DNA of 12,692 bases from a virus. Its lineage: Duplodnaviria; Heunggongvirae; Uroviricota; Caudoviricetes. The position numbers and the translations under genes are program-made. The notes beneath the pieces are model-generated. The model saw only the letters and a list, made by a program, of their open reading frames with translations. It did not search any database and was not told the origin of the DNA. Shown piece by piece: positions 1 to 12,692 of the stretch. Numbering within the stretch: position 1 is the stretch's first letter; every line of letters begins with the position of its first letter. The stretch is from positions 1 through 12,692 of IMG/VR virus record IMGVR_UViG_2617270948_000001. The stretch is one strand, 5' to 3'.

Positions 1-47
1 CATTCGTAATGCGAAGGTCGTAGGTTCGACTCCTATTATCGGCACCA
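1..47 (+). tRNA. thrW: 3' portion of a tRNA-Thr(CGU) gene (anticodon loop TTCGTAA, T-arm GGTTCGACTCC, acceptor 3' strand, terminal CCA at 45-47); window starts inside the gene; probable prophage attachment site
   Basis: Matches the canonical tRNA 3' half: T-loop GTTCGA, acceptor strand TATCGGC complementary to a GCCGATA 5' end, encoded CCA. A P22-type integrase is convergent 14 bp downstream. Identification as thrW is from memory of that tRNA and of P22 integrating there. Confidence 0.7.
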
Positions 48-61
48 TTAAAATCAATAAG

Positions 62-1225
62 TTACACATCATTAGTACCTTCCTTATTTTTTGACTGGGA
101 CAAATTTGGGACCGATGGGTTCAGGATCGAGTCTATTTGCCGTGCGTGTTCGGTAAGGTGATTAGGTGCAAGGTGAGCATATCGACGAACCATTTCGATA
201 GACTCCCAGCCTCCCATTTCCTGTAACACTGACAACGGGACTCCGGCTTGAACCAGCCAACTTGCCCAGGTGTGTCTCAAGTCGTGAAATCTGAAATCAT
301 CAATACCAGCCCGTCTCAGCGCCGCTTTCCAGGCTGTGTTTGCGTCATACCGCATCTTCCTTACTGTTGGCGCTTTCGTTCCGTCTGGTTTGGTACAGCT
401 TTCCTTGTACACAAATACCCAACGGTGATGATTCCCGATTTGTTTTTTCAATACGCGACATGCAGTATCATTCAGCGCAACGCCAATTGCGCGGTTTGAT
501 TTACTCTCTTCCGGGTTTATCCATGCCACCCGGCGCTGCATATCTATTTGTTGCCATTCAAGGTTGATGATGTTCGAGCGTCTTAAGCCTGTTGCCAGTG
601 CAAATTCAACAACAGACTTTAATGGCTCCGGACATTCATCAATCAGCCTTTGTGCTTCATGGGGCTCCAGCCAGCGGATCCGTTTATTCTTTGGTTGAGG
701 CACTTTAATAATTGGTGCCTTATCCAGCATTTTCCATTCACGCTCTGCGGCTCTTAGTAGGGCCTTTATAAATGAAAGATGCGTAGCCTTCGTTGCAACG
801 GACGCTGGTTTTGGCGTGTATTCTGGAACAGGTTTCCCTTTTTTTCTGCATGCTTCTGCCCTGAGTTTCCAGTTTTCCTCATGACGCCGGTTCGTCATTT
901 TCTGCATTGCTGAATAAATTTTTGATTCAGTAATGTCTCTTAGTTGCATTCCTGCGAAATGTTGAAGCCAGAATCCGATCCGGCTTTTGTCATCGTCCAG
1001 TGATTTTTTATGTGCTTTCTCTTCAAGCCACCTGACACAAGCTTCCTCGAACGTTATATCAGGTATTTCACCAAGTTTGCTGACCCGCCATGCTTCAGCC
1101 TTTAGCTTGTCATGGAGTTCTGTCGCCTGCCTTTTGTCCTTTGTTCCAAGAGACTGTTTAAATCTTTTACCGTTCGGCAATGTGAAACTGGCGTACCATA
1201 TTTCACCTCTGCGGAAGAGTGACAT
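62..1225 (-). CDS. int: Tyrosine recombinase / phage integrase, P22-Int type (387 aa)
   Basis: ATG at 1225 preceded by GAGGA; TAA at 62-64. Protein begins [22 protein letters not shown] as recalled for P22 Int. C-terminal catalytic signature HDLRHTWAS ... VRRYAHL (HxxR and Tyr nucleophile). Adjacent to tRNA 3' end. Confidence 0.93.
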
Positions 1226-1452
1226 TTTCTTTCCTCTGTTATGCCATCACCCGCGCTCACCTGGACAGTATGCAGCGGAGACTGAAGCGCCGCAATGCAG
1301 GCTTGTCGTGTTGTGAGGTAAGGAGATTTTAGTTTAGTGGGGTCTTTGCGTGTTGCCTGTAGGCGGCCTGTTCGTATCCAGTTGGTAGCGGTAGGTCTGG
1401 ATATCTTGAGAAACTGACAGGCCTCATCGAGTGTGAGGCTGTATGATTCCAT
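1102..1452 (-). CDS. xis: Excisionase, AlpA/Xis-type HTH (116 aa from ATG at 1452); 3' end overlaps int 5' end
   Basis: ATG at 1450-1452 preceded by AGAGG; the listed ORF extends 10 codons further only via a GTG. Protein [31 protein letters not shown] is the AlpA/excisionase HTH family. Position immediately upstream of int. Confidence 0.8.
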
Positions 1453-1702
1453 GGTTACCTCTGCTTTTTGAACGCATGTCACGTAACTTCTTAATGTGTT
1501 CTGCCGTTTCGATCTCTTCTGCTATCCGATCTGCATCAGCTTTATTCACAGGTTCAAAGTCATGATTAAAGCGGAACATGCTGGCGATACATGTTCTGCC
1601 TTTTCGGATGTAGTGAACTTTGTTGTGGGTAGAACGCAGGATTTTGCAGGGAGTGCCGTGGTGGTCGACGTACCAGGTGTTAGGCAAAATGATTCTGAAC
1701 AT
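1424..1702 (-). CDS. Hypothetical small early-region protein (92 aa)
   Basis: ATG at 1702 with GAGGTG Shine-Dalgarno 7 nt upstream; co-oriented with the early left operon; 3' end overlaps xis start by about 29 nt. No family recognised. Confidence 0.5.
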   Translation of the reverse strand: MFRIILPNTWYVDHHGTPCKILRSTHNKVHYIRKGRTCIASMFRFNHDFEPVNKADADRIAEEIETAEHIKKLRDMRSKSRGNHGIIQPHTR

Positions 1703-1749
1703 TTTTACACCTCAGTTGGACGATGTTGAAATTTGCTGCTTTGAGGCCA

Positions 1750-1968
1750 TCACAATCCCCATTGTTTGTTCTTAAGTTCGATCTCCTCCTGGCAACTTGC
1801 ACAAGTCCGACAACCCTGAACGGCCAGGCGTCTTCGTTCATCTATGGGATCGCCACACTCACAACAATGAGTGGCAGATATAACCTGGTGGTTCAGACGA
1901 CGCATTTTTATTGCTGTATTGCGCTGTAATTCTTCGATTTCTGATGCTGAATCAATGATGTCTGCCAT
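1750..1968 (-). CDS. TraR/DksA-family C4 zinc-finger protein (72 aa)
   Basis: Motif C-x2-C-x17-C-x2-C (CCECGDPIDERRRLAVQGCRTCASC) typical of DksA/TraR zinc fingers. ATG at 1968, co-oriented with early operon. Confidence 0.8.
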   Translation of the reverse strand: MADIIDSASEIEELQRNTAIKMRRLNHQVISATHCCECGDPIDERRRLAVQGCRTCASCQEEIELKNKQWGL

Positions 1969-2022
1969 CTTCCATTAATCCCTGAATTGTTGGTTAATAC
2001 GCTTGAGGGTGAATGCGAATAA

Positions 2023-2045
2023 TAAAAAAGGAGCCTGTAGCTCCC
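2023..2045 (-). terminator. Possible intrinsic terminator (minus strand): GGAGC-ctgta-GCTCC hairpin followed by a T7 run on the minus strand
   Basis: Plus strand reads aaaaaaaGGAGCctgtaGCTCC; on the minus strand this is a 5-6 bp GC-rich stem followed by TTTTTTT. Lies between two small early genes. Confidence 0.4.
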
Positions 2046-2066
2046 TGATGATTTTGCTTTTCATGT

Positions 2067-2282
2067 TCATCGCTCCTTAAAGACGCCGTTTAACATGCCG
2101 ATTGCCAGGCTTAAATGAGTCGGTGTGAATCCCATCAGCGTTACCGTTTCGCGGTGCTTCTTCAGTACGCTACGGCAAATGTCATCGACGTTTTTATCCG
2201 GAAACTGCTGTCTGGCTTTTTTGATTTCAGAATTAGCCTGACGGGCTATGCTGCGAAGGGCGTTTTCCTGCTGAAGTGTCAT
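2067..2282 (-). CDS. Hypothetical small protein (about 71 aa from ATG at 2282; alternative ATG at 2348; listed ORF start at 2381 is a TTG)
   Basis: Open frame ending TGA at 2067-2069; ATG at 2280-2282 with weak GGGA upstream. Start codon uncertain. No family recognised. Confidence 0.4.
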   Translation of the reverse strand: MTLQQENALRSIARQANSEIKKARQQFPDKNVDDICRSVLKKHRETVTLMGFTPTHLSLAIGMLNGVFKER

Positions 2283-2358
2283 TGAACAAGTCCCATGTCG
2301 GCAAGCATAAGCACACAGAATATGAAGCCCGCTGCCAGAAAAATGCATTCCGTGGTTG

Positions 2359-2916
2359 TCATGCAGCCTCCCGACGGGCAAGAATCCTTGAGCCGAACGC
2401 CATCAACTCTCCACGATCAACGGTCGTAAAGTGGCAGTGTGTACGGGGGTATGGGTGCCAGATAATGAGCATCGAGCCTTTATTATTTCCACTGACGGGT
2501 TTCTCAGTGAGTGGGTTAATAAATGCCAGTCGTCCTGCCGTGATGAATCTGACCTCACTGGCGGTTTGTATCGCTTCATGAAACCATCCGACAGATGTGT
2601 CAGCAGGCAATAACATTACACATCCCACACTACTGAATTTGTTTTCAGTGGCTGCCTTTTTCACAAAAGGGGAAATATTGCTGTATGGTGGATTCAACCA
2701 GACATAACCAGAGGCATATCCCATTGCTTCAGGCCATGAAGTGGTTAATGTGTTCTGCTCCTGTGAGATAAAAAGCCGACATAGTCGGTTTTTTTCGCTG
2801 GCGGCAGCATCAAGTTGAAAAACGAACTCTGCATTAAGCGCAGCAAAAATCTCTGGTGGTGTGCGCCAGCTGTCGCGATGTTCGGCAGGAGTATTGCTTC
2901 CGGTGAAATCAGTCAT
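2359..2916 (-). CDS. Phage Dam-family N6-adenine DNA methyltransferase (185 aa)
   Basis: Contains WRTPPEIF near N-terminus and the NPPY catalytic motif (WLNPPYSN), the layout of the phage N-6-adenine-methyltransferase (Dam) family. ATG at 2916 with GGGGG upstream. Confidence 0.85.
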   Translation of the reverse strand: MTDFTGSNTPAEHRDSWRTPPEIFAALNAEFVFQLDAAASEKNRLCRLFISQEQNTLTTSWPEAMGYASGYVWLNPPYSNISPFVKKAATENKFSSVGCVMLLPADTSVGWFHEAIQTASEVRFITAGRLAFINPLTEKPVSGNNKGSMLIIWHPYPRTHCHFTTVDRGELMAFGSRILARREAA

Positions 2917-3070
2917 ACAGCCCCCGTTTATTATTTATCGCCTCAGCCAGCCGCTGTGCTTTCAGTGGATTTCTGATAACAGAAAGGCCGGGAAATACCC
3001 AGCCTCGCTTTGTAACGGAGTAGACGAAAGTGATCGCGCCTACCCGGATATTATCGTGAGGATGCGTCAT
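2909..3070 (-). CDS. Unlisted small ORF (53 aa, [53 protein letters not shown]) between exo and the methyltransferase
   Basis: ATG overlaps the exo TGA stop (ATGA), and its TGA overlaps the methyltransferase start (ATGACTGA). Below the ORF-track length cutoff. Occupies the slot of the small ORF downstream of exo in lambda. Confidence 0.4.
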
Positions 3071-3747
3071 CGCCATTGCTCCCCAAATACAAAACCAATT
3101 TCAGCCAGTGCCTCGTCCATTTTTTCGATGAACTCCGGCACCATCTCGTCAAAACTCGCCATGTACTTTTCATTCCGCTCAATCACGACATAATGCAGGC
3201 CTTCACGCTTCATGCGCGGGTCATAGTTGGCAAAGTACCAGGCATCTTTTCGTGCCACCCACATGCTGTACTGCACCTGGGCCATGTAAGCCGATTTTAT
3301 GGCCTCGAAACCACCGAGCCGGAACTTCATGAAATCCCGGGAGGTAAACGGGCATTTCAGTTCAAGGCCGTTGCCATCACTGCATAAACCATCGGGAGAG
3401 CAGGCGGTGCGCATACTTTCGTCGCGATAGATGATCGGGGATTCAATAACATTCACGCCGGAAGTGAACTCAAACAGGGTTCTGGCGTCGTTCTCGTACT
3501 GTTTTCCCCAGGCCAGTGCTTTAGCGTTAACTTCCGGAGCCACACCGGTGCAAACCTCGGCAAGCAGGGTGTGGAAGTAGGACATTTTCATGTCAGGCCA
3601 CTTCTTTCCGGAGCGGGGTTTTGCTATCACGTTGTGAACTTCTGAAGCGGTGATGACGCCGAGCCGTAATTTGTGCCACGCATCATCCCCCTGTTCGACA
3701 GCTCTCACATCGATCCCGGTACGCTGCAGGATAATGTCCGGTGTCAT
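3067..3747 (-). CDS. exo: Lambda exonuclease (Red-alpha, 226 aa)
   Basis: Near-identical over full length to lambda Exo as recalled ([40 protein letters not shown] ... GFVFGEQWR). Start overlaps bet stop by 4 nt. Confidence 0.96.
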
Positions 3748-4529
3748 GCTGCCACCTTCTGCTCTGCGGCTTTCTGTTTCAGGAATCCAAGAGCTTTTAC
3801 TGCTTCGGCCTGTGTCAGTTCTGACGATGCACGAATGTCGCGGCGAAATATCTGGGAACAGAGCGGCAATAAGTCGTCATCCCATGTTTTATCCAGGGCG
3901 ATCAGCAGAGTGTTAATCTCCTGCATGGTTTCATCGTTAACCGGAGTGATGTCGCGTTCTGGCTGACGTTCTGCAGTGTATGCAGTATTTTCGACAATGC
4001 GCTCGGCTTCATCCTTGTCATAGATACCAGCAAATCCGAAGGCCAGACGGGCACACTGAATCATGGCTTTATGCCGTAACATCCGTTTGGGATGCGACTG
4101 CCACGGCCCCGTGATTTCTCTGCCTTCGCGAGTTTTGAATGGTTCGCGGCGGCATTCATCCATCCATTCGGTAACGCAGATCGGATGATTACGGTCCTTG
4201 CGGTAAATCCGGCATGTACAGGATTCATTGTCCTGCTCAAAGTCCATGCCATCAAACTGCTGGTTTTCATTGATGATGCGGGACCAGCCATCAACGCCCA
4301 CCACCGGAACGATGCCGTTCTGCTTATCAGGGAAGGCGTAAATTTCTTTCGTCCACGGATTAAGGCCGTACTGGTTGGCGACGATCAACAATGCGATGAA
4401 CTGCGCATCGCTGGCATCACCTTTAAATGCCGTCTGGCGAAGAGTGGTGATCAGTTCCTGTGGGTCGACAGAATCCATGCCGACACGTTCAGCCAGCTTC
4501 CCTGCCAGCGTTGCGAGTGCTGTACTCAT
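3744..4529 (-). CDS. bet: Lambda Beta single-strand annealing protein (Red-beta, 261 aa)
   Basis: Matches lambda Bet as recalled ([66 protein letters not shown] ...), same length. Confidence 0.96.
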
Positions 4530-4534
4530 CCGTT

Positions 4535-4831
4535 TTATACCTCTGAATCAATATCAACCTGGTGGTGAGCAATGGTTTCAACCATGTACCGGATGTGTTC
4601 TGCCATGCGCTCCTGAAACTCAACATCGTCATCAAACGCACGGGTAATGGCTTTTTTGCTGGCCCCGTGGCGTTGCAAATGATCGATGCATAGCGATTCA
4701 AACAGGTGCTGGGGCAGGCCTTTTTCCATGTCGTCTGCCAGTTCTGCCTCTTTCTCTTCACGGGCGATCTGCTGGTAGTGACGCGCCCAGCTCTGAGCCT
4801 CAAGACGATCCTGAATGTAATAAGCGTTCAT
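4535..4831 (-). CDS. gam: Lambda Gam, short (GamS-length, 98 aa) form only
   Basis: [60 protein letters not shown] ... VDIDSEV matches lambda Gam from its internal Met. The upstream in-frame extension is closed by TAA at 4907-4909 and has no ATG. Confidence 0.92.
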
Positions 4832-4906
4832 GGCTGAACTCCTGAAAATGGCTGTGAAAAAATCGCCCGCGGAATGCCTGGCTGATTCGGAAAACAGGAA
4901 AGGGGA

Positions 4907-5284
4907 TTAGTGATTCAGACCGTTGCCGCGTCCGTCGAGAAAAACTTCCACGAGCAAGTCACGGGTATAAGTGCGCTCAATGCCGCGATGCAGATAAAGT
5001 CGTCCGCGTAAATTAGCTGATGCAGTCCAGGTACCATCTTTGCGTTTGACCAGCATTCCTGGCATGACCGCACCTCGATTAACGGTCTGCGTTCCGTAAT
5101 GTTGATGAACCATAAAAACTCCTGCCCGTAAGCTGGGCTGCTGAACATATAGAGACTTCTGCGCGTATTCAGGCGGTGGATGGCCGCCGGTTGTCATAAC
5201 TAAGCCGCCTCGTTGAAGCGACTGAGGTATGAAGTGTTGAGTTGATTTCAGCTGGTCACACCGACGTTCACGCGTCCGCTTCAC
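4907..5284 (-). CDS. Hypothetical protein, first gene downstream of putative PL (N position); 125 aa if GTG at 5284, or 68 aa if ATG at 5113; arginine-rich N-terminus KRTRERR
   Basis: Open frame 4907-5317 (the listed start is TTG). GTG at 5282-5284 has GGAG 8 nt upstream; ATG at 5111-5113 has AGGAG 5 nt upstream. N-terminal KRTRERRCDQLK resembles the arginine-rich motif of N antiterminators (lambda TRRRERR). C-terminus does not match lambda Kil (which ends ...WILILKLRSSKSIH in the frame overlapping gam). Confidence 0.3.
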   Translation of the reverse strand: MKRTRERRCDQLKSTQHFIPQSLQRGGLVMTTGGHPPPEYAQKSLYVQQPSLRAGVFMVHQHYGTQTVNRGAVMPGMLVKRKDGTWTASANLRGRLYLHRGIERTYTRDLLVEVFLDGRGNGLNH

Positions 5285-5390
5285 CCCTCGCACTCCCCGG
5301 AGCCTGCTGAAATTCAAGCTGCGGATCTAAGCGGTCATCGCAACGGTGAATCAGGTGATTGCCGTATCGTTGTGTTGTTGCGATGAATTC

Positions 5391-5434
5391 ATTTAAAACT
5401 ATAGTTGTTTTATCGTCAACAACAAAAGTTGTTT
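5391..5434 (-). promoter_or_regulatory. Putative PL promoter and OL operator cluster (GTTGTT/AACAAC repeats overlapping a TTGACG -35)
   Basis: Minus strand: TTGACG (complement of 5414-5419), 17-bp spacer, TTAAAT (complement of 5391-5396). Overlapping GTTGTT(5404-5409)-N8-AACAAC(5418-5423) and AACAAC-aaaa-GTTGTT(5428-5433), the same half-site as the OR palindrome. Confidence 0.35.
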
Positions 5435-5561
5435 TGTTGGTTATTTTAGAAATAACTGGTTGTATTTAGGATGGATTTATTTTGTGACTTGCATCGCATA
5501 GCGATAACTGAAGCGAGGTTGTGGTGGTTTTTTGAACGGTGTGTGTGATGAGGGGAGGGGC

Positions 5562-5597
5562 AAAAGAAAACCCGGCACGGTGGCCGGGTTGTTTTTA
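5562..5597. terminator. Strong bidirectional intrinsic terminator (8-bp stem AACCCGGC/GCCGGGTT, loop acggtg, flanked by A-run and T-run)
   Basis: aaaagaaaaCCCGGCacggtgGCCGGGttgttttta; T-tract on either strand. Lies immediately 3' of the 316-aa minus-strand gene (stop at 5595-5597), ending the cI-cassette transcript before the PL region. Confidence 0.75.
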
Positions 5598-6545
5598 TAG
5601 CTCATTGTAAACAGCAATAGGCTCAATGAAATACTCATCAGAGTCAGGGGCGCAAAATGTTGACTCCAGATCAAAAAGGCTGTCATTCATATTCCAGACT
5701 GCACTGCGAATGCCGTTTAGTTCACGAGCCTCTGATTCCTGATTACCTTCAGACGTTGATGTACGCGTTATTATCCCTACGACTGTGAATGCAGAGGTCG
5801 TTCGACGAGAATATAACTTTACAAACATTTCTGGACTGATTTTAAGAAAATCTCTGATTAAGAATGAGGTGAATTTAATATCTTGCATTTTTTGTGATAT
5901 TTCTATTTCGTCACCATATGCGTAATCTAAAACAGAAGACAAATGCTCAAAGAATTTTTTCTGATTTGGAGATGTTAAATTATCAAGCTCACTTTTAATT
6001 TCTGCTTGTCTTGCCTTGATAATATTAAATTCATTGGATTTGGGTTTTATCGATTTCAGCATCGATTCTAGACTTTCTAATTCGTCATTTCGATGAACGA
6101 AATTAATAGCATAGTTAGTTTTACAGAAATTCTTAGCGGTATTTTTTAATTTATTATAGTCATTAAATTGAATTGGGCAGGTGATTTTAACAAAGCAATT
6201 AGCCTTAATTTTGTTCGAGTCGATCGGGGAAGTTATGTTAGACAGAATTCCTCTTTTGCTAAGTTCGTTTTCAAATTTCAGATAATGATAATCATGAGGG
6301 TTTAACACTGTTGATATTTTTTTTGTGTCACTCGTTTTACTTGAACTACTTTTTGTCTTTATTTCGACCGCATCTATATTTGAAAGAGTAGACTCTTTAT
6401 GCTCCATCGCGGATTGAATTACGCCCTCAAATAATTGAGAGCTTAAAGAGTAGACCTTCTCATAATCAATATAAATGATATTTTTTAACTGCATACCAAT
6501 TCCATTAGTGATATTTAAGTTGTTCTTTCTTTCTTTCAAAGTCAT
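5595..6545 (-). CDS. Hypothetical soluble protein (316 aa; possibly 299 aa from internal ATG at 6494), AT-rich cargo, no recognised family
   Basis: Long open frame in strongly AT-rich DNA unlike the flanking phage genes. Last gene of a three-ORF cassette co-oriented with cI. No Walker or other motif recognised by eye. Confidence 0.6.
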   Translation of the reverse strand: MTLKERKNNLNITNGIGMQLKNIIYIDYEKVYSLSSQLFEGVIQSAMEHKESTLSNIDAVEIKTKSSSSKTSDTKKISTVLNPHDYHYLKFENELSKRGILSNITSPIDSNKIKANCFVKITCPIQFNDYNKLKNTAKNFCKTNYAINFVHRNDELESLESMLKSIKPKSNEFNIIKARQAEIKSELDNLTSPNQKKFFEHLSSVLDYAYGDEIEISQKMQDIKFTSFLIRDFLKISPEMFVKLYSRRTTSAFTVVGIITRTSTSEGNQESEARELNGIRSAVWNMNDSLFDLESTFCAPDSDEYFIEPIAVYNEL

Positions 6546-6681
6546 CGCTATTTGACTTTCTGACCCTTTCTATGTGCATTAAAGTTTCCTGTGCATTTTT
6601 GAGGTTTTTTCTTGAAAACCATGCCAATACAGCAGGTATCACAACAGCTATTATGGATAAAATAGTAATTAAGTACTCCAT
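6505..6681 (-). CDS. Unlisted small membrane peptide (58 aa, MEYLITILSIIAVVIPAVLAWFSRKNLKNAQETLMHIERVRKSNSDDFERKKEQLKYH), single N-terminal TM helix
   Basis: ATG at 6679-6681 lies 3 nt after the TAA of the upstream 138-aa gene, whose last codons (CAG GAG TAA) supply an AGGAG Shine-Dalgarno. 3' end overlaps the 316-aa ORF start by 41 nt in another frame. Below the ORF-track cutoff. Confidence 0.45.
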   Translation of the reverse strand: MEYLITILSIIAVVIPAVLAWFSRKNLKNAQETLMHIERVRKSNSDDFERKKEQLKYH

Positions 6682-6684
6682 AAT

Positions 6685-7101
6685 TTACTCCTGCGCCACT
6701 ACTTTGTTATTGATAATAGCACACCTGACTGAATTTTGTCCAATGTATAAGGATATACCACAAGTAATAGCGACTAATATGCGAGTCGTATTCATGTTAA
6801 GGATGTTATCAGCCAGCATAACAATAATGTAAATTATAGAAAAAAGTACAATGAAAACAATCGATATGGTAGTGTTTATAATAATATTGTTTTCAGTTTG
6901 CTTGCTGGGTTGGCCCATTCCGTAATAAATACTGGATATTTGTATGGCAAAGCCAAAACATATCAACTCAGTTATATTGATCAGCTCTATGTTTTTATTA
7001 GTGATGAAATAAGCAATAAATCTAATAAAGATAGGGATTGCTCCAATGATTACTGTTCCGCACCACCACTTGAAATAATCACTATGAATATTATGTTGCA
7101 T
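6685..7101 (-). CDS. Hypothetical integral membrane protein (138 aa, about four predicted TM helices), first gene after cI
   Basis: Hydrophobic segments WWCGTVIIGAIPIFIRFIAYFI, ELICFGFAIQISSIYYG, ISIVFIVLFSIIYIIVMLA, ILVAITCGISLYIG. ATG at 7101, 49 bp downstream of the cI stop. AT-rich. Size and topology resemble RexB but no sequence similarity is claimed. Confidence 0.6.
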   Translation of the reverse strand: MQHNIHSDYFKWWCGTVIIGAIPIFIRFIAYFITNKNIELINITELICFGFAIQISSIYYGMGQPSKQTENNIIINTTISIVFIVLFSIIYIIVMLADNILNMNTTRILVAITCGISLYIGQNSVRCAIINNKVVAQE

Positions 7102-7149
7102 TATATAAACTCAATATTTAATTAATTTAAAGTTTCATAAGTTCCATGT

Positions 7150-7839
7150 TTACCCATGCTTCCTGTACGTCTGCGGCATGCTCCCGATGACTTTCCCGAA
7201 AATGAATACCCGGTTCATCTCGTCTTTCTCGATCGGGTCCCACGGTGAGTAACTCTTGTTATCAGAGATAACGAGCAGCTTATCCTTCATCATTTGCAGG
7301 CGCTTTACATGGGCTGTGTCGTCGTACAGAAACGCATAGATACCATCACCGTCGAAAGATTTAACAGTGATATCAACGAACAAAAGGTCACCTGGTTCGA
7401 TCGTTCCTGACATGCTGTCACCGCGTACGTTAATGATGCGGATATTTTCTGCCTTCCTACCATCGAACATGTGACGAGCATCGTCAAACGAGTACTCAAC
7501 CGAGCGTAGAACTTCTACAAACTCACGGTTGATGACTCCCGGCCCGGCACTCACTTCTATATCAAGAACGTCAATCTTAAAGTATTTGGAATGGCTGACA
7601 GTTGATTGTATTGGTTGCACTGTACTGTCTGACATATTTCCAACGCCAGAAGATAACCATTCTGCGCGCACACCCAAAGCGTTCGCGATCTCCACGATTT
7701 TAGTTGTTTGATTAGCTTTCCCTGTTTCGATTTTCTGAATAGCAGCCTGGCTAACCCCGACCAAATCCCCAAGCGCCTTTTGTGTAAGGCCTCGCGCTAA
7801 TCTGGCTTCTTTAAGTCTTTCTGAGAGTGTTGTTTTCAT
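7150..7839 (-). CDS. CI-like prophage repressor (229 aa from ATG at 7839): N-terminal XRE-type HTH plus C-terminal LexA-like S24 autopeptidase domain
   Basis: HTH segment LTQKALGDLVGVSQAAIQKIETGK; Ala-Gly cleavage site in VSAGPG; catalytic Ser in RGDSM and Lys in HVKRL. The listed ORF start at 7905 runs through the operator region. ATG at 7839 has almost no leader, consistent with a PRM-type leaderless transcript. Confidence 0.85.
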   Translation of the reverse strand: MKTTLSERLKEARLARGLTQKALGDLVGVSQAAIQKIETGKANQTTKIVEIANALGVRAEWLSSGVGNMSDSTVQPIQSTVSHSKYFKIDVLDIEVSAGPGVINREFVEVLRSVEYSFDDARHMFDGRKAENIRIINVRGDSMSGTIEPGDLLFVDITVKSFDGDGIYAFLYDDTAHVKRLQMMKDKLLVISDNKSYSPWDPIEKDEMNRVFIFGKVIGSMPQTYRKHG

Positions 7840-7931
7840 AGTCCAAATGTACAACCAAGGTTTTATTCCATCAAACGAAAATGGTTGTTGACTAAAAACA
7901 ACCATAGTTTTAATCTTGATTCAAATTAACC
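7840..7931. promoter_or_regulatory. OR-like immunity switch: divergent PRM (minus) and PR (plus) promoters with a 25-bp perfect palindromic operator
   Basis: Palindrome ATGGTTGTT-gactaaa-AACAACCAT at 7881-7905. PR: TTGACT (7888-7893), 17 bp, TAATCT (7911-7916). PRM on minus strand: TTGATG (complement 7869-7874), 17 bp, TACATT (complement 7846-7851), about 7 nt before the cI ATG. Extra ACAACC/GGTTGT half-sites at 7851-7856 and 7937-7942. Confidence 0.55.
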
Positions 7932-7943
7932 ATGGAGGTTGTT

Positions 7944-8174
7944 ATGAACCCAGCTATCAAAACAGCGATCAATATCGTTGGTTCACAAAAGAAACTGGGC
8001 GCTGCTTGCGAAGTTTCACAGCAGGCCGTCTATAAGTGGCTTCACAACAAAGCAAAGGTATCCCCTGAACATGTCGGCAGCATTGTTACGGCTACTGGTG
8101 GAGTAGTGAAGGCATACCAGATTCGCCCGGATCTTCCGAAGTTGTTTCCACACACCGAAAAGAACGCAGCTTAA
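7944..8174 (+). CDS. Cro-like small HTH regulator, DicC/YdaS-like (76 aa from ATG at 7944; the listed ORF begins at an upstream ATG at 7932)
   Basis: GGAGG at 7934-7938 sits 5 nt before the ATG at 7944. Sequence SQKKLGAACEVSQQAVYKWL is a DicC/YdaS-type HTH. Divergent from the repressor across the operator region. Confidence 0.7.
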   Translation: MNPAIKTAINIVGSQKKLGAACEVSQQAVYKWLHNKAKVSPEHVGSIVTATGGVVKAYQIRPDLPKLFPHTEKNAA

Positions 8175-8186
8175 ATTTCCATTTCA

Positions 8187-8199
8187 CGCTCTTTAACAA
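8187..8199 (+). promoter_or_regulatory. boxA-like element CGCTCTTTAACAA at the nutR position just downstream of cro
   Basis: GCTCTTTAACAA matches the E. coli rrn/lambdoid boxA consensus as recalled. Located 13 bp after the cro-like stop, where nutR lies in lambda. No convincing boxB hairpin seen downstream. Confidence 0.35.
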
Positions 8200-8243
8200 T
8201 AAGCAATCAACTTAACAGTCAATTCAAACTAAAGGAGTCAATT

Positions 8244-8783
8244 ATGCAACCACTTACATACCAACAGACTAGCGGATTTAGCCCGACTGCGGTGATAAAT
8301 CGTTCTCAAACAAAACAGGTGCCAGGCCACGAAAAAATCCGTGATGCCGTCCGCGCCTGGTCGGCTGTAGATAATCAGGATGTCGTTGCCACACTCATTG
8401 TGAATGAGTATCGGGAGCAGGGCGGCGGCACCATCGATTTCCCTGATGATGTCAGCCGTGCACGCCAGAAGCTGTTCCGCTTCCTCGATAACAAATTCGA
8501 TTCTGAAAAATACCGAAATAACGTGCGTGAACTGACCCCGGCAATTCTGGCTGTACTACCGCTGGAATATCGCGGCCACCTGGTTGAGCAGGATAGCTTC
8601 ATGGCTAGGCTGGCTGAAATGGAAAAGGAACTCAGTGAGGCAAAACAGGCTGTCATTCTCAACGCACCACGCCACCAGAAACTGAAGGAGATGAGTGAAG
8701 GCATTGTGTCGATGTTTCGAGTGGACCCGGATCTGGCAGGTCCATTGATGGCGATGGTCACCACCATGCTGGGGGCAATATGA
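8244..8783 (+). CDS. YdaT-like protein at the cII position (179 aa)
   Basis: AGGAG 7 nt upstream of ATG at 8244. Segments NEYREQGGG and LTPAILAVLPLEYRGHL resemble recalled Rac YdaT (EEYLRQGGG, LIPAILAILPRELRHRL). Follows a YdaS/DicC-like cro as in Rac-type immunity regions. No similarity to lambda CII. Confidence 0.5.
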   Translation: MQPLTYQQTSGFSPTAVINRSQTKQVPGHEKIRDAVRAWSAVDNQDVVATLIVNEYREQGGGTIDFPDDVSRARQKLFRFLDNKFDSEKYRNNVRELTPAILAVLPLEYRGHLVEQDSFMARLAEMEKELSEAKQAVILNAPRHQKLKEMSEGIVSMFRVDPDLAGPLMAMVTTMLGAI

Positions 8784-8869
8784 CATGTTCAGAAATGGCG
8801 AAAGCCGGTCTGCTGGAACAGAACCGACTTTCAGGTGCAAATCGTAACGCACTCATTGCGGGAGGAATT

Positions 8870-9799
8870 ATGGCAAACACTGCTGAGATATTCAATTTTC
8901 CAGTGCCGGATGCGGCACAAAAGGAGCCGCGCGTGGCAGATCTCGATGATGGTTATACGCGCATTGCAAATGAGTTGCTGGAAGCTGTGATGCTGGCCGG
9001 ATTAACACAGCACCAGCTTCTGGTCTTCCTGGCTGTCATGCGCAAAACATATGGCTTTAATAAAAAACTGGATTGGGTGAGCAACGAGCAACTTTCCGAG
9101 TTGACCGGGATATTGCCGCACAAGTGTTCTGCTGCAAAAAGTGTTCTGGTAAAGCGTGGGATTTTTATTCAGAGCGGGCGGAATATAGGCATTAATAATG
9201 TGGTCAGTGAATGGTCAACATTACCCGAATCAGGTAAGAAAAATAAAGTTTACCTGAAAGAGGTAAATTTACCTGAATCAGGTAAGAAAAGTTTACCCAA
9301 ATCAGGTAAAGGCACTTACCCGAATCAGGTAAACACAAAAGACAAACTAACAAAAGACAATATAAAACCTTATTCGTCCGAGAATTCTGGCGAATCCTCT
9401 GACCAGCCAGAAAACGATCTTCCTGTGGTGAAACCGGATGCTGCAATTCAGAGCGGCAGCAAGTGGGGGACAGCAGAAGACCTGACCGCCGCAGAGTGGA
9501 TGTTTGACATGGTGAAGACCATCGCGCCATCAGCCAGAAAACCGAATTTTGCAGGGTGGGCTAACGATATCCGCCTGATGCGTGAACGTGACGGACGTAA
9601 CCACCGCGATATGTGTGTACTGTTCCGCTGGGCATGCCAGGACAACTTCTGGTCCGGTAACGTGCTAAGTCCGGCCAAACTCCGCGACAAGTGGACCCAA
9701 CTCGAAATCAACCGTAACAAGCAACAGGCAGGCGTGACAGCTAGCAAACCAAAACTCGACCTGACAAACACAGACTGGATTTACGGGGTGGATCTATGA
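8870..9799 (+). CDS. O: Replication initiator O (lambda O family, 309 aa from ATG at 8870; listed ORF start at 8780 is probably an upstream in-frame extension)
   Basis: GGAGG 4 nt before ATG at 8870. MANTAEIFNF ... ADLDDGYTRIANELLEA ... RKTYGFNK parallels lambda O N-terminus (MTNTAKILNF ... ADLDDGYARLSN ... RKTYGWNK). Iterons lie inside the gene. Stop overlaps P start (ATGA). Confidence 0.9.
   Translation: MANTAEIFNFPVPDAAQKEPRVADLDDGYTRIANELLEAVMLAGLTQHQLLVFLAVMRKTYGFNKKLDWVSNEQLSELTGILPHKCSAAKSVLVKRGIFIQSGRNIGINNVVSEWSTLPESGKKNKVYLKEVNLPESGKKSLPKSGKGTYPNQVNTKDKLTKDNIKPYSSENSGESSDQPENDLPVVKPDAAIQSGSKWGTAEDLTAAEWMFDMVKTIAPSARKPNFAGWANDIRLMRERDGRNHRDMCVLFRWACQDNFWSGNVLSPAKLRDKWTQLEINRNKQQAGVTASKPKLDLTNTDWIYGVDL
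9221..9333. repeat. Replication origin iterons: five copies (one degenerate) of an 18-bp dyad TTACC(C/T)(G/A)AATCAGGTAA(G/A), followed by an AT-rich stretch at 9334-9370
   Basis: Copies at 9221-9238, 9249-9265 (degenerate), 9269-9286, 9293-9310, 9316-9333, spaced about 20-28 bp, then cacaaaagacaaactaacaaaagacaatataaaacc. Inside the O gene, as in ori-lambda. Encodes repeated PESGKK in the O linker. Confidence 0.75.
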
Positions 9800-10497
9800 A
9801 AAACATCGCCGCACAGATGATTAACTTTGACCGTGAGCAGATGCGTCGGATCGCCAACAACATGCCGGAACAGTACGACGAAAAGCCGCAGGTACAGCAG
9901 GTAGCGCAGATCATCAATGGTGTGTTCAGCCAGTTACTGGCAACTTTCCCGGCGAGCCTGGCTAACCGGGACCAGAACGAACTGAACGAAATCCGCCGCC
10001 AGTGGGTTCTGGCTTTCCGGGAAAACGGGATCACCACGATGGAACAGGTTAACGCAGGAATGCGCGTAGCCCGTCGGCAGAATCGACCATTCCTGCCATC
10101 ACCCGGGCAGTTTGTTGCCTGGTGCCGGGAAGAAGCATCCGTTACCGCCGGGCTGCCAAACGCCAGCGAGCTGGTTGATATGGTTTACGAGTATTGCCGG
10201 AAACGTGGCCTGTATCCGGATGCAGAGTCTTATCCGTGGAAATCAAACGCGCACTACTGGCTGGTTACCAACCTGTATCAGAACATGCGGGCCAATGCGC
10301 TGACTGATGCGGAATTACGGCGCAAGGCTGCCGATGAACTGGCCTGTATGACAGCGCGAATTAACCGTGGTGAGGCGATACCTGAACCAGTAAAACAACT
10401 TCCTGTCATGGGCGGGAGACCGCTTAATCGTGTTCAGGCTCTGGCGAAGATCGCAGAAATCAAAGCGAAGTTTGGGCTGAAAGGAGCAAGTGTATGA
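9796..10497 (+). CDS. P: Replication protein P (lambda P, DnaB helicase loader, 233 aa)
   Basis: Essentially identical to lambda P as recalled (MKNIAAQMINFDREQMRRIANNMPEQYDEKPQVQQVAQIINGVFSQLLATFPASLANRDQNE ... KFGLKGASV). Confidence 0.96.
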   Translation: MKNIAAQMINFDREQMRRIANNMPEQYDEKPQVQQVAQIINGVFSQLLATFPASLANRDQNELNEIRRQWVLAFRENGITTMEQVNAGMRVARRQNRPFLPSPGQFVAWCREEASVTAGLPNASELVDMVYEYCRKRGLYPDAESYPWKSNAHYWLVTNLYQNMRANALTDAELRRKAADELACMTARINRGEAIPEPVKQLPVMGGRPLNRVQALAKIAEIKAKFGLKGASV

Positions 10498-10667
10498 CGG
10501 GCAAAGAGGCAATTATTCATTACCTGGGGACTCATAAGAACTTCTGTGCGCAGGACGTTGCCGCGGTAACAGGCGCAACCGTAACCAGCATAAATCAGGC
10601 TGCGGCTAAAATGGCGCGGGCAGGAATCCTGGTCGTTGATGGTAAGGTCTGGCGAACGTTTGTTTAA
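10494..10667 (+). pseudogene. ren: Truncated ren (57 codons versus about 96 in lambda); marks the point where lambda-like sequence ends
   Basis: ATG overlaps P stop (ATGA). MTGKEAIIHYLGTHKNFCAQDVAAVTGATVTSINQAAAKMARAGILVVDGKVWRT matches the lambda Ren N-terminus, then diverges (FV-stop) into AT-rich unrelated sequence. Below ORF-track cutoff. Confidence 0.6.
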
Positions 10668-10813
10668 CGGTTAGCTACTCAGGATGATAGGGCGGGGCAA
10701 GTGAGTATGAAGCGGATTTTCAGGAATGCCATCAGAGTTTGGAAATAAAGTGGGTTTTCTAGTGGCAAGAGACTTGATAATATTTAGTTCTTTGAATCCA
10801 AGGAGATAGGGTT

Positions 10814-11308
10814 ATGAGAAAATTTATTTTAGCCTTTGTTATAAGTGCCTCGTTTACAGCAAATGCTGGTGTAGAGAAGTTAGGGCCGTGGATAACAAAG
10901 TCTGAGATAAATAAAATGACTGATCAGACTGACTTTGTGGCTCTTAATTTATCACCAGATTCATATAACAAAGCAGGTACTGATCGTGCAACTTCACTGG
11001 TGTTGCGTTGTAGTGATAACAAAACAGATGTCTATTTATCATTCAATGATTATATGGGTTCGGACAACCCAAGAATTACAGTACGGTTAGATGGCGGAAA
11101 GCCGGTCAAGAGTGTTTGGGGAGGTGGGGAAGGCGGTGATTCTGCATTTGCTCCACAACCAATACAATTTATAAAGACCTTGGCTAAGCATAAAAAAGCT
11201 ATTTTTGGGTTTGAACCTTATGGATCAACTATGCAAGTAGTTGAGTTTGACTTGTCTGAGATTGATAAGGTTGTGGAAAAAATTTCACAGTCTTGCAATT
11301 GGAAATAA
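10814..11308 (+). CDS. Hypothetical secreted/periplasmic protein (164 aa) with Sec signal peptide; AT-rich cargo
   Basis: AGGAG 8 nt before ATG. N-terminus MRKFILAFVISASFTANA-GVE has a positive n-region, hydrophobic core and an A-x-A cleavage site. Two Cys (C66, C162) could form a disulfide. No family recognised. Confidence 0.6.
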   Translation: MRKFILAFVISASFTANAGVEKLGPWITKSEINKMTDQTDFVALNLSPDSYNKAGTDRATSLVLRCSDNKTDVYLSFNDYMGSDNPRITVRLDGGKPVKSVWGGGEGGDSAFAPQPIQFIKTLAKHKKAIFGFEPYGSTMQVVEFDLSEIDKVVEKISQSCNWK

Positions 11309-11325
11309 CAAAAAAATATCATATG

Positions 11326-11352
11326 AACCCAGTTGGCTCTGGGTTTTTTATT
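11326..11352 (+). terminator. Intrinsic terminator after the secreted-protein gene (stem AACCCAG/CTGGGTT, loop ttggct, then TTTTTTATTT)
   Basis: Perfect 7-bp stem immediately followed by a T-run, 18 bp after the stop codon. Confidence 0.65.
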
Positions 11353-11704
11353 TCTGTTGTCTATAATGTATTCATAATTTTTACTGGGATACAGTGCACA
11401 TAAAATCCCAATTGCGGTAGGACGATAACTGGATCAGGTGGAGGCACTTACGCAAGAATTGATTGTATTAATTTGCATAGAGCAACGCGAAGTTATTTAT
11501 AAATTAACTGATATAGAGTACTAGATGTAATCCGAACCGGTTATGATTCGTCACCAATTTTGCAAGAGGCTGGGTAGGTAAGCTATTGGATACCGTAGGT
11601 AGCAAAAATATAGAAGGAGGGGAAGAATTGCTAAACTCGAGCATTCACTTAAATCTGAGTTATTTATTGTTAAGATATAATACACTTTGAATAATAGAGG
11701 CTAT

Positions 11705-12109
11705 ATGACAACGAAAATAAGCAAAGATGATAAACATCTGCTTGATCCTTATTTAAAATGGCTTGCAAACAAGAAGCTAATGGTTGCCTTCTGGTTGGTG
11801 CTAATGATATGTGGTTGCATATATGCATATATAGAAAATGATTGGTCACTTCTTCCCCGATTCGGATGTTTAGGCATAATGATTGGCACATTGCTTACTC
11901 TTTCTCCGCTTTTTGCAGAAGGTATCTACCTGTCAAGGCGAGAAGCATTTAGTTTTGGTTCGGTACAACAAGATGGGAGCGTCACCTCAACCTCTGAAAA
12001 AGGTCGTGCAGTATCAAGGAATATTCTATGGGGTGTTATCATTATAATCATATCATCGATAATAAATGCATTTGGTGACTTAATAATGGTCACGATTATG
12101 AATGGTTAA
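11705..12109 (+). CDS. Hypothetical small membrane protein (134 aa from ATG at 11705; the listed ORF start at 11687 is a TTG), about three TM helices
   Basis: AGAGG 4 nt before ATG. Hydrophobic segments LMVAFWLVLMICGCIYAYI, LGIMIGTLLTLSPLF, ILWGVIIIIISSIINAFGDLIMVTI. AT-rich. No family recognised. Confidence 0.5.
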   Translation: MTTKISKDDKHLLDPYLKWLANKKLMVAFWLVLMICGCIYAYIENDWSLLPRFGCLGIMIGTLLTLSPLFAEGIYLSRREAFSFGSVQQDGSVTSTSEKGRAVSRNILWGVIIIIISSIINAFGDLIMVTIMNG

Positions 12110-12365
12110 AATAATTAATATTTATGATATTAGTATTATATAACTTAGTATGCTGTTTAATTAAGTCACCGCAGACTTGACACTTGGCGGTAACTTCTGC
12201 GCTAAACGGTGACGTTTATACGCACATACAATCTAAATCCTCTTCTCCCTCCACAGATGCAGAAATATACCTGCGATTTTTTGCATTCGGTGTGTAGTGG
12301 CATAGTGAATTTGGCCACCTGAATAGAGGTGATATCATCACCTCATAGTCAAAACAGGTGACATT

Positions 12366-12677
<312 letters not shown>

Positions 12678-12692
12678 TTGAGAAACTCAGGG

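Follow-up and report, generated by a model that had tools for sequence, protein, structure and literature searches.

How can a lambdoid prophage without a recognised N gene carry a perfect boxA at the place where lambda keeps nutR, and what would such an element do when no boxB hairpin follows it? The question is raised by the 12,692-nucleotide (nt) viral stretch IMGVR_UViG_2617270948_000001 (positions 1 to 12,692 of that IMG/VR record, all of which is called the window here), the early region of a lambdoid prophage integrated beside a transfer RNA (tRNA) gene. The motif in question is CGCTCTTTAACAA at 8187-8199 on the plus strand. That it is the boxA half of an RNA module sitting at the nutR position of an N-less lambdoid prophage is well supported by sequence comparison. 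The fuller reading, in which this boxA was orphaned and would still load the host Nus factors, is given about an even chance.

The last 12 bases of the motif are the 12-mer of the E. coli rrn boxA (GCTCTTTAACAA). It agrees with the rrn boxA GCUCUUUAACAA at 12 of 12 positions, has U at position 8 and is preceded by C as in nut sites. It also fits the gamma-proteobacterial consensus GYTCTTTAANA (PMC5725501). The motif starts 13 nt past the stop codon of cro and ends 44 nt ahead of the ATG of cII, which is the nutR position; the boxA that the preliminary description had called near-consensus is an exact one. There is only one exact copy in the window, and 0.0015 copies of an exact 12-mer are expected by chance in 12.7 kb on both strands. 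A chance occurrence is ruled out by this expectation together with the positional conservation in relatives that is described below. The features of the rightward transcript around the motif are the following.

7888-7916 (+): inferred pR promoter, read from the sequence (TTGACT, 16-17 nt spacer, TTAATC/TAATCT)
7944-8174 (+): cro, YdaS-type, 76 amino acids (aa); Pfam YdaS_toxin 4.8e-17 and P22_Cro, PHROG 35 transcriptional repressor 1.5e-27
8175-8243 (+): cro-cII spacer, 69 nt, A27 C15 G6 T21, unstructured, C-rich and G-poor
8187-8199 (+): boxA, rrn-type, with the U at position 8 of the high-affinity NusB-NusE form
8200-8217 (+): linker TAAGCAATCAACTTAACA, homologous by alignment to the A/C-rich linker (18-20 nt) of intact modules
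8212-8220 (+): deletion scar, a single TTAACAG (8212-8218) plus the remnant 3' arm CAGTC (8216-8220)
8232-8237 (+): Shine-Dalgarno sequence AAGGAG of cII
8244-8783 (+): cII, YdaT-type, 179 aa, ATG at 8244; Pfam YdaT_toxin 7e-30, PHROG 163 CII-like activator 6e-67

The inferred pR lies between the divergent cI and cro genes, about 290 nt from boxA, and is similar in layout to pL; boxA should therefore be transcribed within the cro-cII mRNA. The product of cro is annotated as Cro in phage PhiR5_1. Consistent with the preliminary description, no hairpin follows boxA: the RNA of 8170-8260 has a minimum free energy of -4.1 kcal/mol, with z = -0.01 against shuffled sequences. The same fold, together with inspection, rejects a hidden boxB up- or downstream of boxA. 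Rfam gave no match near the spacer at E-values up to 5. The put sites of HK022, which had been suggested for comparison, show no blastn similarity to the spacer, and a putR elsewhere in the window was rejected as well, as no blastn match to HK022 or HK639 put was obtained.

Between 7930 and 10700 the C/G ratio peaks, at 20/7, in the 78-nt stretch that starts at 8151. By base composition the cro-cII spacer thus resembles a rut site more than any other part of the early right transcript does; nutR has a comparable setting within lambda tR1. Among full-length IMG/VR copies of this immunity type, 114 of 117 have the identical boxA. On sequence, position and conservation, the element can be taken as a bona fide boxA. 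Two further observations concern the spacer itself: the direct repeats AGTCAATT at 8217-8224 and 8236-8243 (+), 19 nt apart, flank the cII Shine-Dalgarno sequence, and several TCAA/TTGA motifs occur.

The boxA-linker-hairpin module and its 12-nt deletion

The closer Cro relatives, locus L233 (84% identity) and loci L235-237 (82%), have a boxA, a linker of 18-20 nt and a hairpin GGCUGA-NNNN-UCAGCC ahead of cII. The window's own immunity region has a minority allele with the same arrangement: E. coli TL20 carries 12 additional nt (TTAACAGACTGA) downstream of the linker. In the minimum free energy fold of the TL20 spacer, these form a hairpin GACUG-AUUAA-CAGUC that aligns with the GGCUGA hairpin of L233 and L235 and differs from it by a G-C to A-U double change at pair 2. 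This change, and C-G/U-A at pair 7, preserve pairing. The window allele differs from that of TL20 in lacking 12 nt between two 7-nt repeats, TTAACAG. Thus, the alignment gives good support to a deletion between the TTAACAG repeats that removed the 5' arm and the loop and left boxA orphaned, and the missing hairpin is, on this comparison, a recent deletion.

The deletion allele is the common one. Among records of complete E. coli genomes it was found 1468 times and the hairpin allele 47 times, and the intact module is present in about 3% of the E. coli copies of this immunity region. The region itself was found in 1524 of 5426 complete E. coli genomes (about 28%), with 1378 of the 1524 copies at least 99% identical. 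Isolated, viable phages have the deletion allele as well (PhiR5_1, PhiR34_1, IdasGreatGrand, PhiR47_2 and PhiR26_1). This cI-cro immunity region occurs at up to four places within one E. coli genome, which is unusual for homoimmune prophages.

With the GGCUGA-type hairpin, the intact module is also present in many other enterobacterial prophages, and it forms a family. IMG/VR was scanned with a pattern of boxA, 10-35 nt and then GGCTGANNNNTCAGCC, and 53 contigs were found with one copy each. With L233 and L235-237 added, the family counts 57 loci in 37 sequence contexts. Its place is always between cro and cII; the cro 3' ends upstream of it are of at least eight different kinds, and the cII downstream is either YdaT-type or lambda-type. 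Of the 37 contexts, 34 have CAA at boxA bases 10-12, which were left free in the search, 36 have a C just before boxA, and 36 have a linker of 18-20 nt. After the linker comes a stem-loop of 5-7 base pairs, whose tetraloops have 12 different sequences, four of them GNRA and two UNCG. Such varied, GNRA/UNCG-enriched loops point to selection on an RNA hairpin, and not to one arginine-rich-peptide specificity or to a protein-specific DNA palindrome. When only the linker and the 5' arm were fixed in the scan, 20 loci were found, and all 20 had an intact boxA and 3' arm. A scan of viral contigs for the hairpin only was abandoned as too unspecific, its new matches being unrelated viruses.

A covariance model of the module gave one strong match per locus (47-79 bits) and none in the left arms, and its other matches, at most 24 bits, were the antisense palindrome or lone boxAs. 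With this model, 8184-8225 of the window scored 33.1 bits (E 2e-5), in comparison with at most 24 bits for ordinary N-type nut sites. The window site has the boxA and the linker and lacks the stem-loop, and by these features it is best classed as a truncated member of the family. The intact module was not found in 50,697 GenBank phage records, in which the cII parts alone matched, and as far as we found, the boxA-linker-hairpin module has no published description.

The wider relatives show where the module's place comes from. Cro homologues were aligned, and 27 loci were taken from one-genome-per-species contigs, 26 of them with downstream sequence. A boxA lies 7-24 nt past the cro stop codon with at most one mismatch in 13 of the 26 loci, which belong to other genera, and with at most three in 16. 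The motif is thus conserved at this position in relatives as well as in 37 of 37 module contexts. At the boxA-bearing loci, found in many Enterobacterales, a GC-stem hairpin comes next, and most of them have an opposite-strand boxA, that is a nutL, 1-3.6 kb to the left. Locus L100 (Pantoea) has a pL almost identical to that of the window, followed by boxA, a hairpin and an open reading frame (ORF) starting MTRNQRRMAAYNAKK, which is arginine-rich and N-like; homology between the window and L100 ends about 10 nt past the -10 element of pL. The boxA, nutL and N of the cro relatives, together with this break, indicate that the immunity module of the window came from N-type phages and that its nutL and N flank was replaced. 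In Salmonella phage UPF_BP1, whose cro is homologous, an HK022-type putR lies exactly at the place of the window boxA, which shows that the slot hosts interchangeable antitermination signals.

Independently of boxA, several cro lineages have a small GC hairpin (e.g. GCCGCCTAATCTGCGGC) that overlaps the stop codon of cro (L002 3955-3985; L004 about 5075-5095; L005 about 4320-4340; L006 about 2775-2795; L235 4220-4240). It is found in phages without boxA and, in L235-237, before boxA; the window cro has no such hairpin.

Proposed function and competing explanations

N-independent loading of Nus factors with an anti-Rho effect appears to be the most likely function of the window boxA. Transcription from pR would place boxA inside an untranslated, unstructured, C-rich spacer. 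Because its sequence is that of the E. coli rrn boxA, NusB-NusE(S10) should bind to it, and this would seed assembly of the host Nus complex (NusA, NusG, SuhB) on RNA polymerase with no phage protein involved. The complex would then shield pR transcription from Rho at the rut-like spacer and at the untranslated stretches toward Q. A secondary, suhB-like effect on cII translation is possible. The function is probably accessory and not essential.

For boxA alone being sufficient, the work of Berg, Squires & Squires in 1989 reportedly provides the rrn precedent. Binding of NusB-NusE is better for rrn-type boxA than for lambda boxA (PMC3177189). A boxA alone nucleates a Nus-SuhB complex, which protects from Rho at rrn operons and Salmonella CRISPR arrays (PMC4807359, PMC7665894). 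Lone boxAs also occur in suhB and in a Citrobacter toxin gene, and the outcome at suhB is translational repression with Rho termination (PMC5725501). The expected obstacle in the present phages is also Rho: in the complete genome of PhiR5_1, the way from pR to Q contains no strong plus-strand intrinsic terminator, and for about 700 nt the pR transcript runs antisense to three minus-strand genes, a situation that would suit rrn-type complexes, which suppress Rho. An N-independent, rrn-like antitermination through boxA and NusB-NusE was one of the two possibilities raised in the preliminary description. The conserved single-copy module in prophages without N or nutL lends this idea indirect support.

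Several observations weigh against an active boxA. 4A7-type phages have the same pL leader, kil and gam, and also the same cII-O-P-ren as far as gene order and the initial 58 nt of cII show, but their cro-cII spacer is 30 nt long and there is no boxA anywhere in the early region; with an apparently identical operon in 4A7, boxA would be dispensable for this genome type. The hairpin is conserved in the other module members and was lost in the window allele. Within the window allele, boxA shows no visible extra constraint over its flanks, with about two mutational events in the 12-nt boxA and about eight in the other 57 nt of the spacer, both being small numbers. Of the two boxA variants counted, GTTCTTTAACAA stays within the consensus, whereas GCTCTTTGACAA violates it. 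The Serratia locus L090 has a degenerate boxA (GCTTAATAACAG) and no hairpin, and may be the end state of a decayed orphan boxA. The right arm of the window prophage is interrupted by morons and an insertion sequence before the nin/Q region. Moreover, rrn-type complexes are poor against intrinsic terminators. The element may therefore be dispensable or decaying.

An inert relic is a serious rival explanation, which we think possible, with the chances tilted against it. In this case the module would have needed both boxA and the hairpin, or a factor that reads the hairpin, the deletion would have inactivated it, and boxA would be perfect because the allele is young and clonally spread. The hairpin was removed by a simple repeat-mediated event, and the near-identity of most E. 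coli copies leaves little time for decay. The consensus-breaking variant, the lack of excess constraint, the viable boxA-less phages such as 4A7 and the possibly decayed boxA of L090 all fit. On the other hand, a consensus boxA in transcribed, unstructured RNA was sufficient for Nus recruitment in every tested case in E. coli and Salmonella (PMC5725501, PMC7665894), and some additional cause would have to account for an inert one. The deletion allele outnumbers the hairpin allele by about 30:1 and is carried by isolated phages, so hairpin loss does not seem costly. In the more divergent hairpin-bearing lineage, boxA has changed only where the consensus allows Y. If boxA is inert, the locus is a clean case of modular nut-site decay after N loss, an ordinary finding.

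The boxA might instead act on cII as it does in suhB. The boxA-tethered Nus complex would loop the RNA, hinder ribosome loading on cII and let Rho act within cII; CII would be lowered and the lysis-lysogeny decision tuned, and read-through would not be promoted. The geometry agrees with this, since boxA is less than 50 nt from the cII start as in the repression of suhB and the Citrobacter toxin gene, and lambda nutL likewise represses N translation (both discussed in PMC5725501). The module always lies directly upstream of cII of either type, and the 12-nt deletion brings boxA nearer to the Shine-Dalgarno sequence. However, the position is explained equally well by nutR ancestry, the AAGGAG of cII is strong, and repression and antitermination are not mutually exclusive. 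We regard this function as unlikely.

A DNA-level role, with an incidental boxA match, is very improbable. The site would then be part of a leftward, CII-activated pRE-type promoter or an operator for CII(YdaT) or Cro. In prophage CP-933P, the DNA protected by YdaT spans about 95 bp between ydaS and ydaT; the protein recognises TTGATTN6AATCAA and switches on a PRE there (PMC9986795, PMC8630535). In the window, an AATCAA half-site lies at 8205-8210, and TTAACAATAAGCAATCAA (8193-8210) matches this operator with three mismatches. The AGTCAATT repeats and the TCAA/TTGA motifs of the spacer could possibly be CII(YdaT) sites or elements of an opposite-strand pRE-type promoter. A match with three mismatches is nevertheless at chance level (21 found in the window against 11.9 expected), and no PDB chain, that of the solved CP-933P YdaT included, matches the window cII in sequence; a CP-933P-type operator overlapping boxA was rejected on these two grounds. 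The offset of boxA is kept behind many cro types and before both cII types, which argues against a regulator-specific DNA site. The orientation always follows pR transcription, and GNRA/UNCG loops are enriched beside boxA.

Returning to N-independent Nus loading, its general form would be that a large group of N-less lambdoid prophages drive early rightward transcription with a host-only rrn-type boxA module and leftward transcription with put-type or other leaders. This generalisation is tentative, and we would not yet call it probable. In textbook terms, early antitermination in lambdoid phages relies on N plus nut or on put RNA. If the module works without N, it would be a third route in which a phage borrows the host machinery of rRNA antitermination outright. 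It would add prophages to the short list of transcripts other than rRNA on which the Nus complex acts (suhB, CRISPR arrays), and explain how right operons without N and put reach Q. In that case the hairpin-less allele, the commonest in E. coli and present in viable phages, would identify boxA by itself as the active part. Nature also provides an allelic series (boxA plus hairpin, boxA only, and neither) with apparently the same cII-O-P-ren operon downstream, which makes host-only Nus antitermination by phages directly testable.

The leftward operon and the rest of the window

The remaining features of the window are listed below.

1-44 (+): tRNA gene, 3' part, truncated by the window edge; Rfam tRNA, 29.7 bits
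62-1225 (-): prophage integrase, next to the tRNA 3' part
3067-4831 (-): exo, bet and gam, named from the annotation of phage PhiR5_1
4907-5197 (-): kil, 96 aa; PHROG 294, annotated in PhiR5_1 and 4A7
5198-5390 (-): pL leader, about 190 nt, GC-rich
5391-5419 (-): inferred pL promoter, read from the sequence (TTGACG 5419-5414, 17-nt spacer, TTAAAT 5396-5391)
5595-7101 (-): two morons between cI and pL
7150-7905 (-): S24-type cI
7881-7905: operator-like palindrome that contains the inferred pR
8780-9799 (+): O
9796-10497 (+): P
10494-10667 (+): truncated ren, 57 aa
10814-11308: low-GC moron, VasI-like, PHROG 1848
11325-11346: intrinsic terminator of the VasI-like moron
11687-12109: membrane-like ORF, 140 aa, in an AT-rich stretch
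from 12366: IS3-type transposase ORF

The preliminary description found no canonical N gene, and scans of the pL-operon ORFs against Pfam and PHROG agree: what they recognised was Kil, a DNA methyltransferase and a DksA-like protein, the other ORFs being unknowns, and no N family was among the matches. Its other suggestion, a diverged nut site paired with an N-like ORF at 4907-5284, did not survive. That ORF (4907-5317 with its extension) encodes Kil (PHROG 294, 'Kil protein for bacterial septation inhibition', 1.4e-37), and the same gene is annotated as Kil in the near-identical phage PhiR5_1 and in 4A7. The in-frame upstream extension is arginine-rich (RLRGVRGVKRTRERR, translated by hand), and it starts at TTG without a Shine-Dalgarno sequence, inside a non-coding leader that is conserved across immunity types. 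No second boxA was found on the minus strand of the window, no nutL in its left arm (no boxA and no covariance-model match), and no boxA, hairpin, boxB or N gene in the pL leader 5198-5390. Reading of boxA by an N-like protein from this ORF, or by an unrecognised N elsewhere, is most improbable and largely refuted by these results and by the 12 loop sequences of the ancestral hairpin, which are incompatible with one arginine-rich-peptide specificity, even though N proteins are small, diverse and sometimes oddly placed, such as Gp17 of mEp021 in a rightward operon (PMC11893012).

The pL leader is 95-100% identical to those of phages of different immunity type, e.g. 4A7, and the pL promoter/operator is nearly identical in L233, L235 and L100. 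In L233, an HK639-type putL comes after the near-identical pL operator, and beyond it the 3' leader and the gene start are again those of the window; with the same sequences on both sides, the window leader sits exactly at the place of putL. The slot filled by 5198-5390 thus holds an HK639-type putL in the near-homoimmune L233, or nutL plus N in L100. Compared with put RNAs, the leader showed no significant similarity, a weak resemblance in a MAFFT alignment and a fold z of -1.32. It may be a cis-acting leader or antiterminator RNA of a new kind.

A 15-nt motif (CGCAGCTTRAATTTC / CGCAGCTT(A/G)AATTTC) was found in sense orientation both at the cro 3' end just upstream of boxA (8165-8179, +) and in the pL leader (5309-5323, -). 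It was judged to be chance, because 4A7-type phages with the same leader lack the motif.

The left arms of the intact-module prophages were also inspected, in the 39 loci that, by our own count, extend 3 kb or more leftward from the module. A blastn match to HK639/HK022-type putL was found in 14 of them. A long non-coding leader containing the boxA-like element TGCT[T/C/A][T/A]TTAACAA is present in about 20, with a perfect element in two loci, and in the remaining loci nothing was recognised. No nutL partner of the intact module was found in the left arms, no N-like ORF was seen by eye in six of them, and PHROG recognised no N family in five sampled ORFs of two (L279 and L247). The long leader is about 700 nt, GC-rich and non-coding (L235 1160-1830, -; also L087, L089, L236-L240, L247, L290 and others). 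At its start stands the boxA-like TGCTTTTTAACAAC, which is the perfect TGCTCTTTAACAAT in L269 and L275, and no ORF was called within it.

At the left end of the window, the 3' part of a tRNA gene with the adjoining integrase indicates an attachment site in the tRNA gene. The rexAB position (5595-7101, -) is occupied by a DUF6414 protein (316 aa) and a 138-aa ORF without family match, and the same cI-pL slot in PhiR5_1 carries HipA-like toxin/antitoxin genes. The gene pair is probably a swappable defence or moron cassette, closed by a bidirectional terminator at 5569-5590.

Comparison with known antitermination systems

The nutR sites of the lambdoid phages lambda, P22 and 21 resemble the window element in lying directly after cro and before cII on the pR transcript with the same boxA, and phage 21 also has an rrn-type boxA (PMC3177189). 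In contrast, the window phage has no boxB, no recognised N and no nutL; for this reason the element should not be filed as nutR, though it descends from one. The intact module differs as well. Its linker is 18-20 nt long, whereas that between boxA and boxB in lambda is about 8 nt, and its hairpin has variable tetraloops and occurs once per genome, where an N-specific pentaloop would be expected.

HK022 and HK639 are likewise lambdoid phages without N, and many intact-module prophages carry an HK639/HK022-type putL. However, the window spacer contains neither a put-like sequence nor the two-stem structure of put RNA (about 70 nt). The put RNA binds the zinc-binding domain of the RNA polymerase beta' subunit without host factors (PMC9378689), in contrast to boxA, which acts through NusB-NusE.

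Lone consensus boxAs on non-rRNA transcripts are known from the suhB 5' untranslated region and the Salmonella CRISPR leaders, and in suhB the distance to the start codon is below 50 nt as in the window. These belong to chromosomal host genes, whereas the window boxA is phage-borne and derived from nut. In the E. coli rows of part 2 of 5 of the published list of boxAs near start codons (PMC5725501), a cII gene appears only at 3 nt, and the window locus is not evident in that part.

The E. coli rrn antitermination system (NusA/B/E/G, SuhB and S4) shares with the window the identical 12-nt boxA, its location early in a long operon and the lack of an available phage protein. Two differences are that the hairpin of the module follows boxA while that of rrn precedes it, and that no GU-rich boxC was seen on inspection near the window boxA. 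The window operon is moreover a translated mRNA, not rRNA. In rrn, Berg et al. (1989) are said to have found the boxB hairpin dispensable. Later work describes it in the same way (PMC4807359, PMC6614797), and the hairpin of the module, lost in the window allele, appears to be dispensable too. Taken together, we infer that the window boxA would work most like the boxA elements of the rrn operons and the CRISPR arrays.

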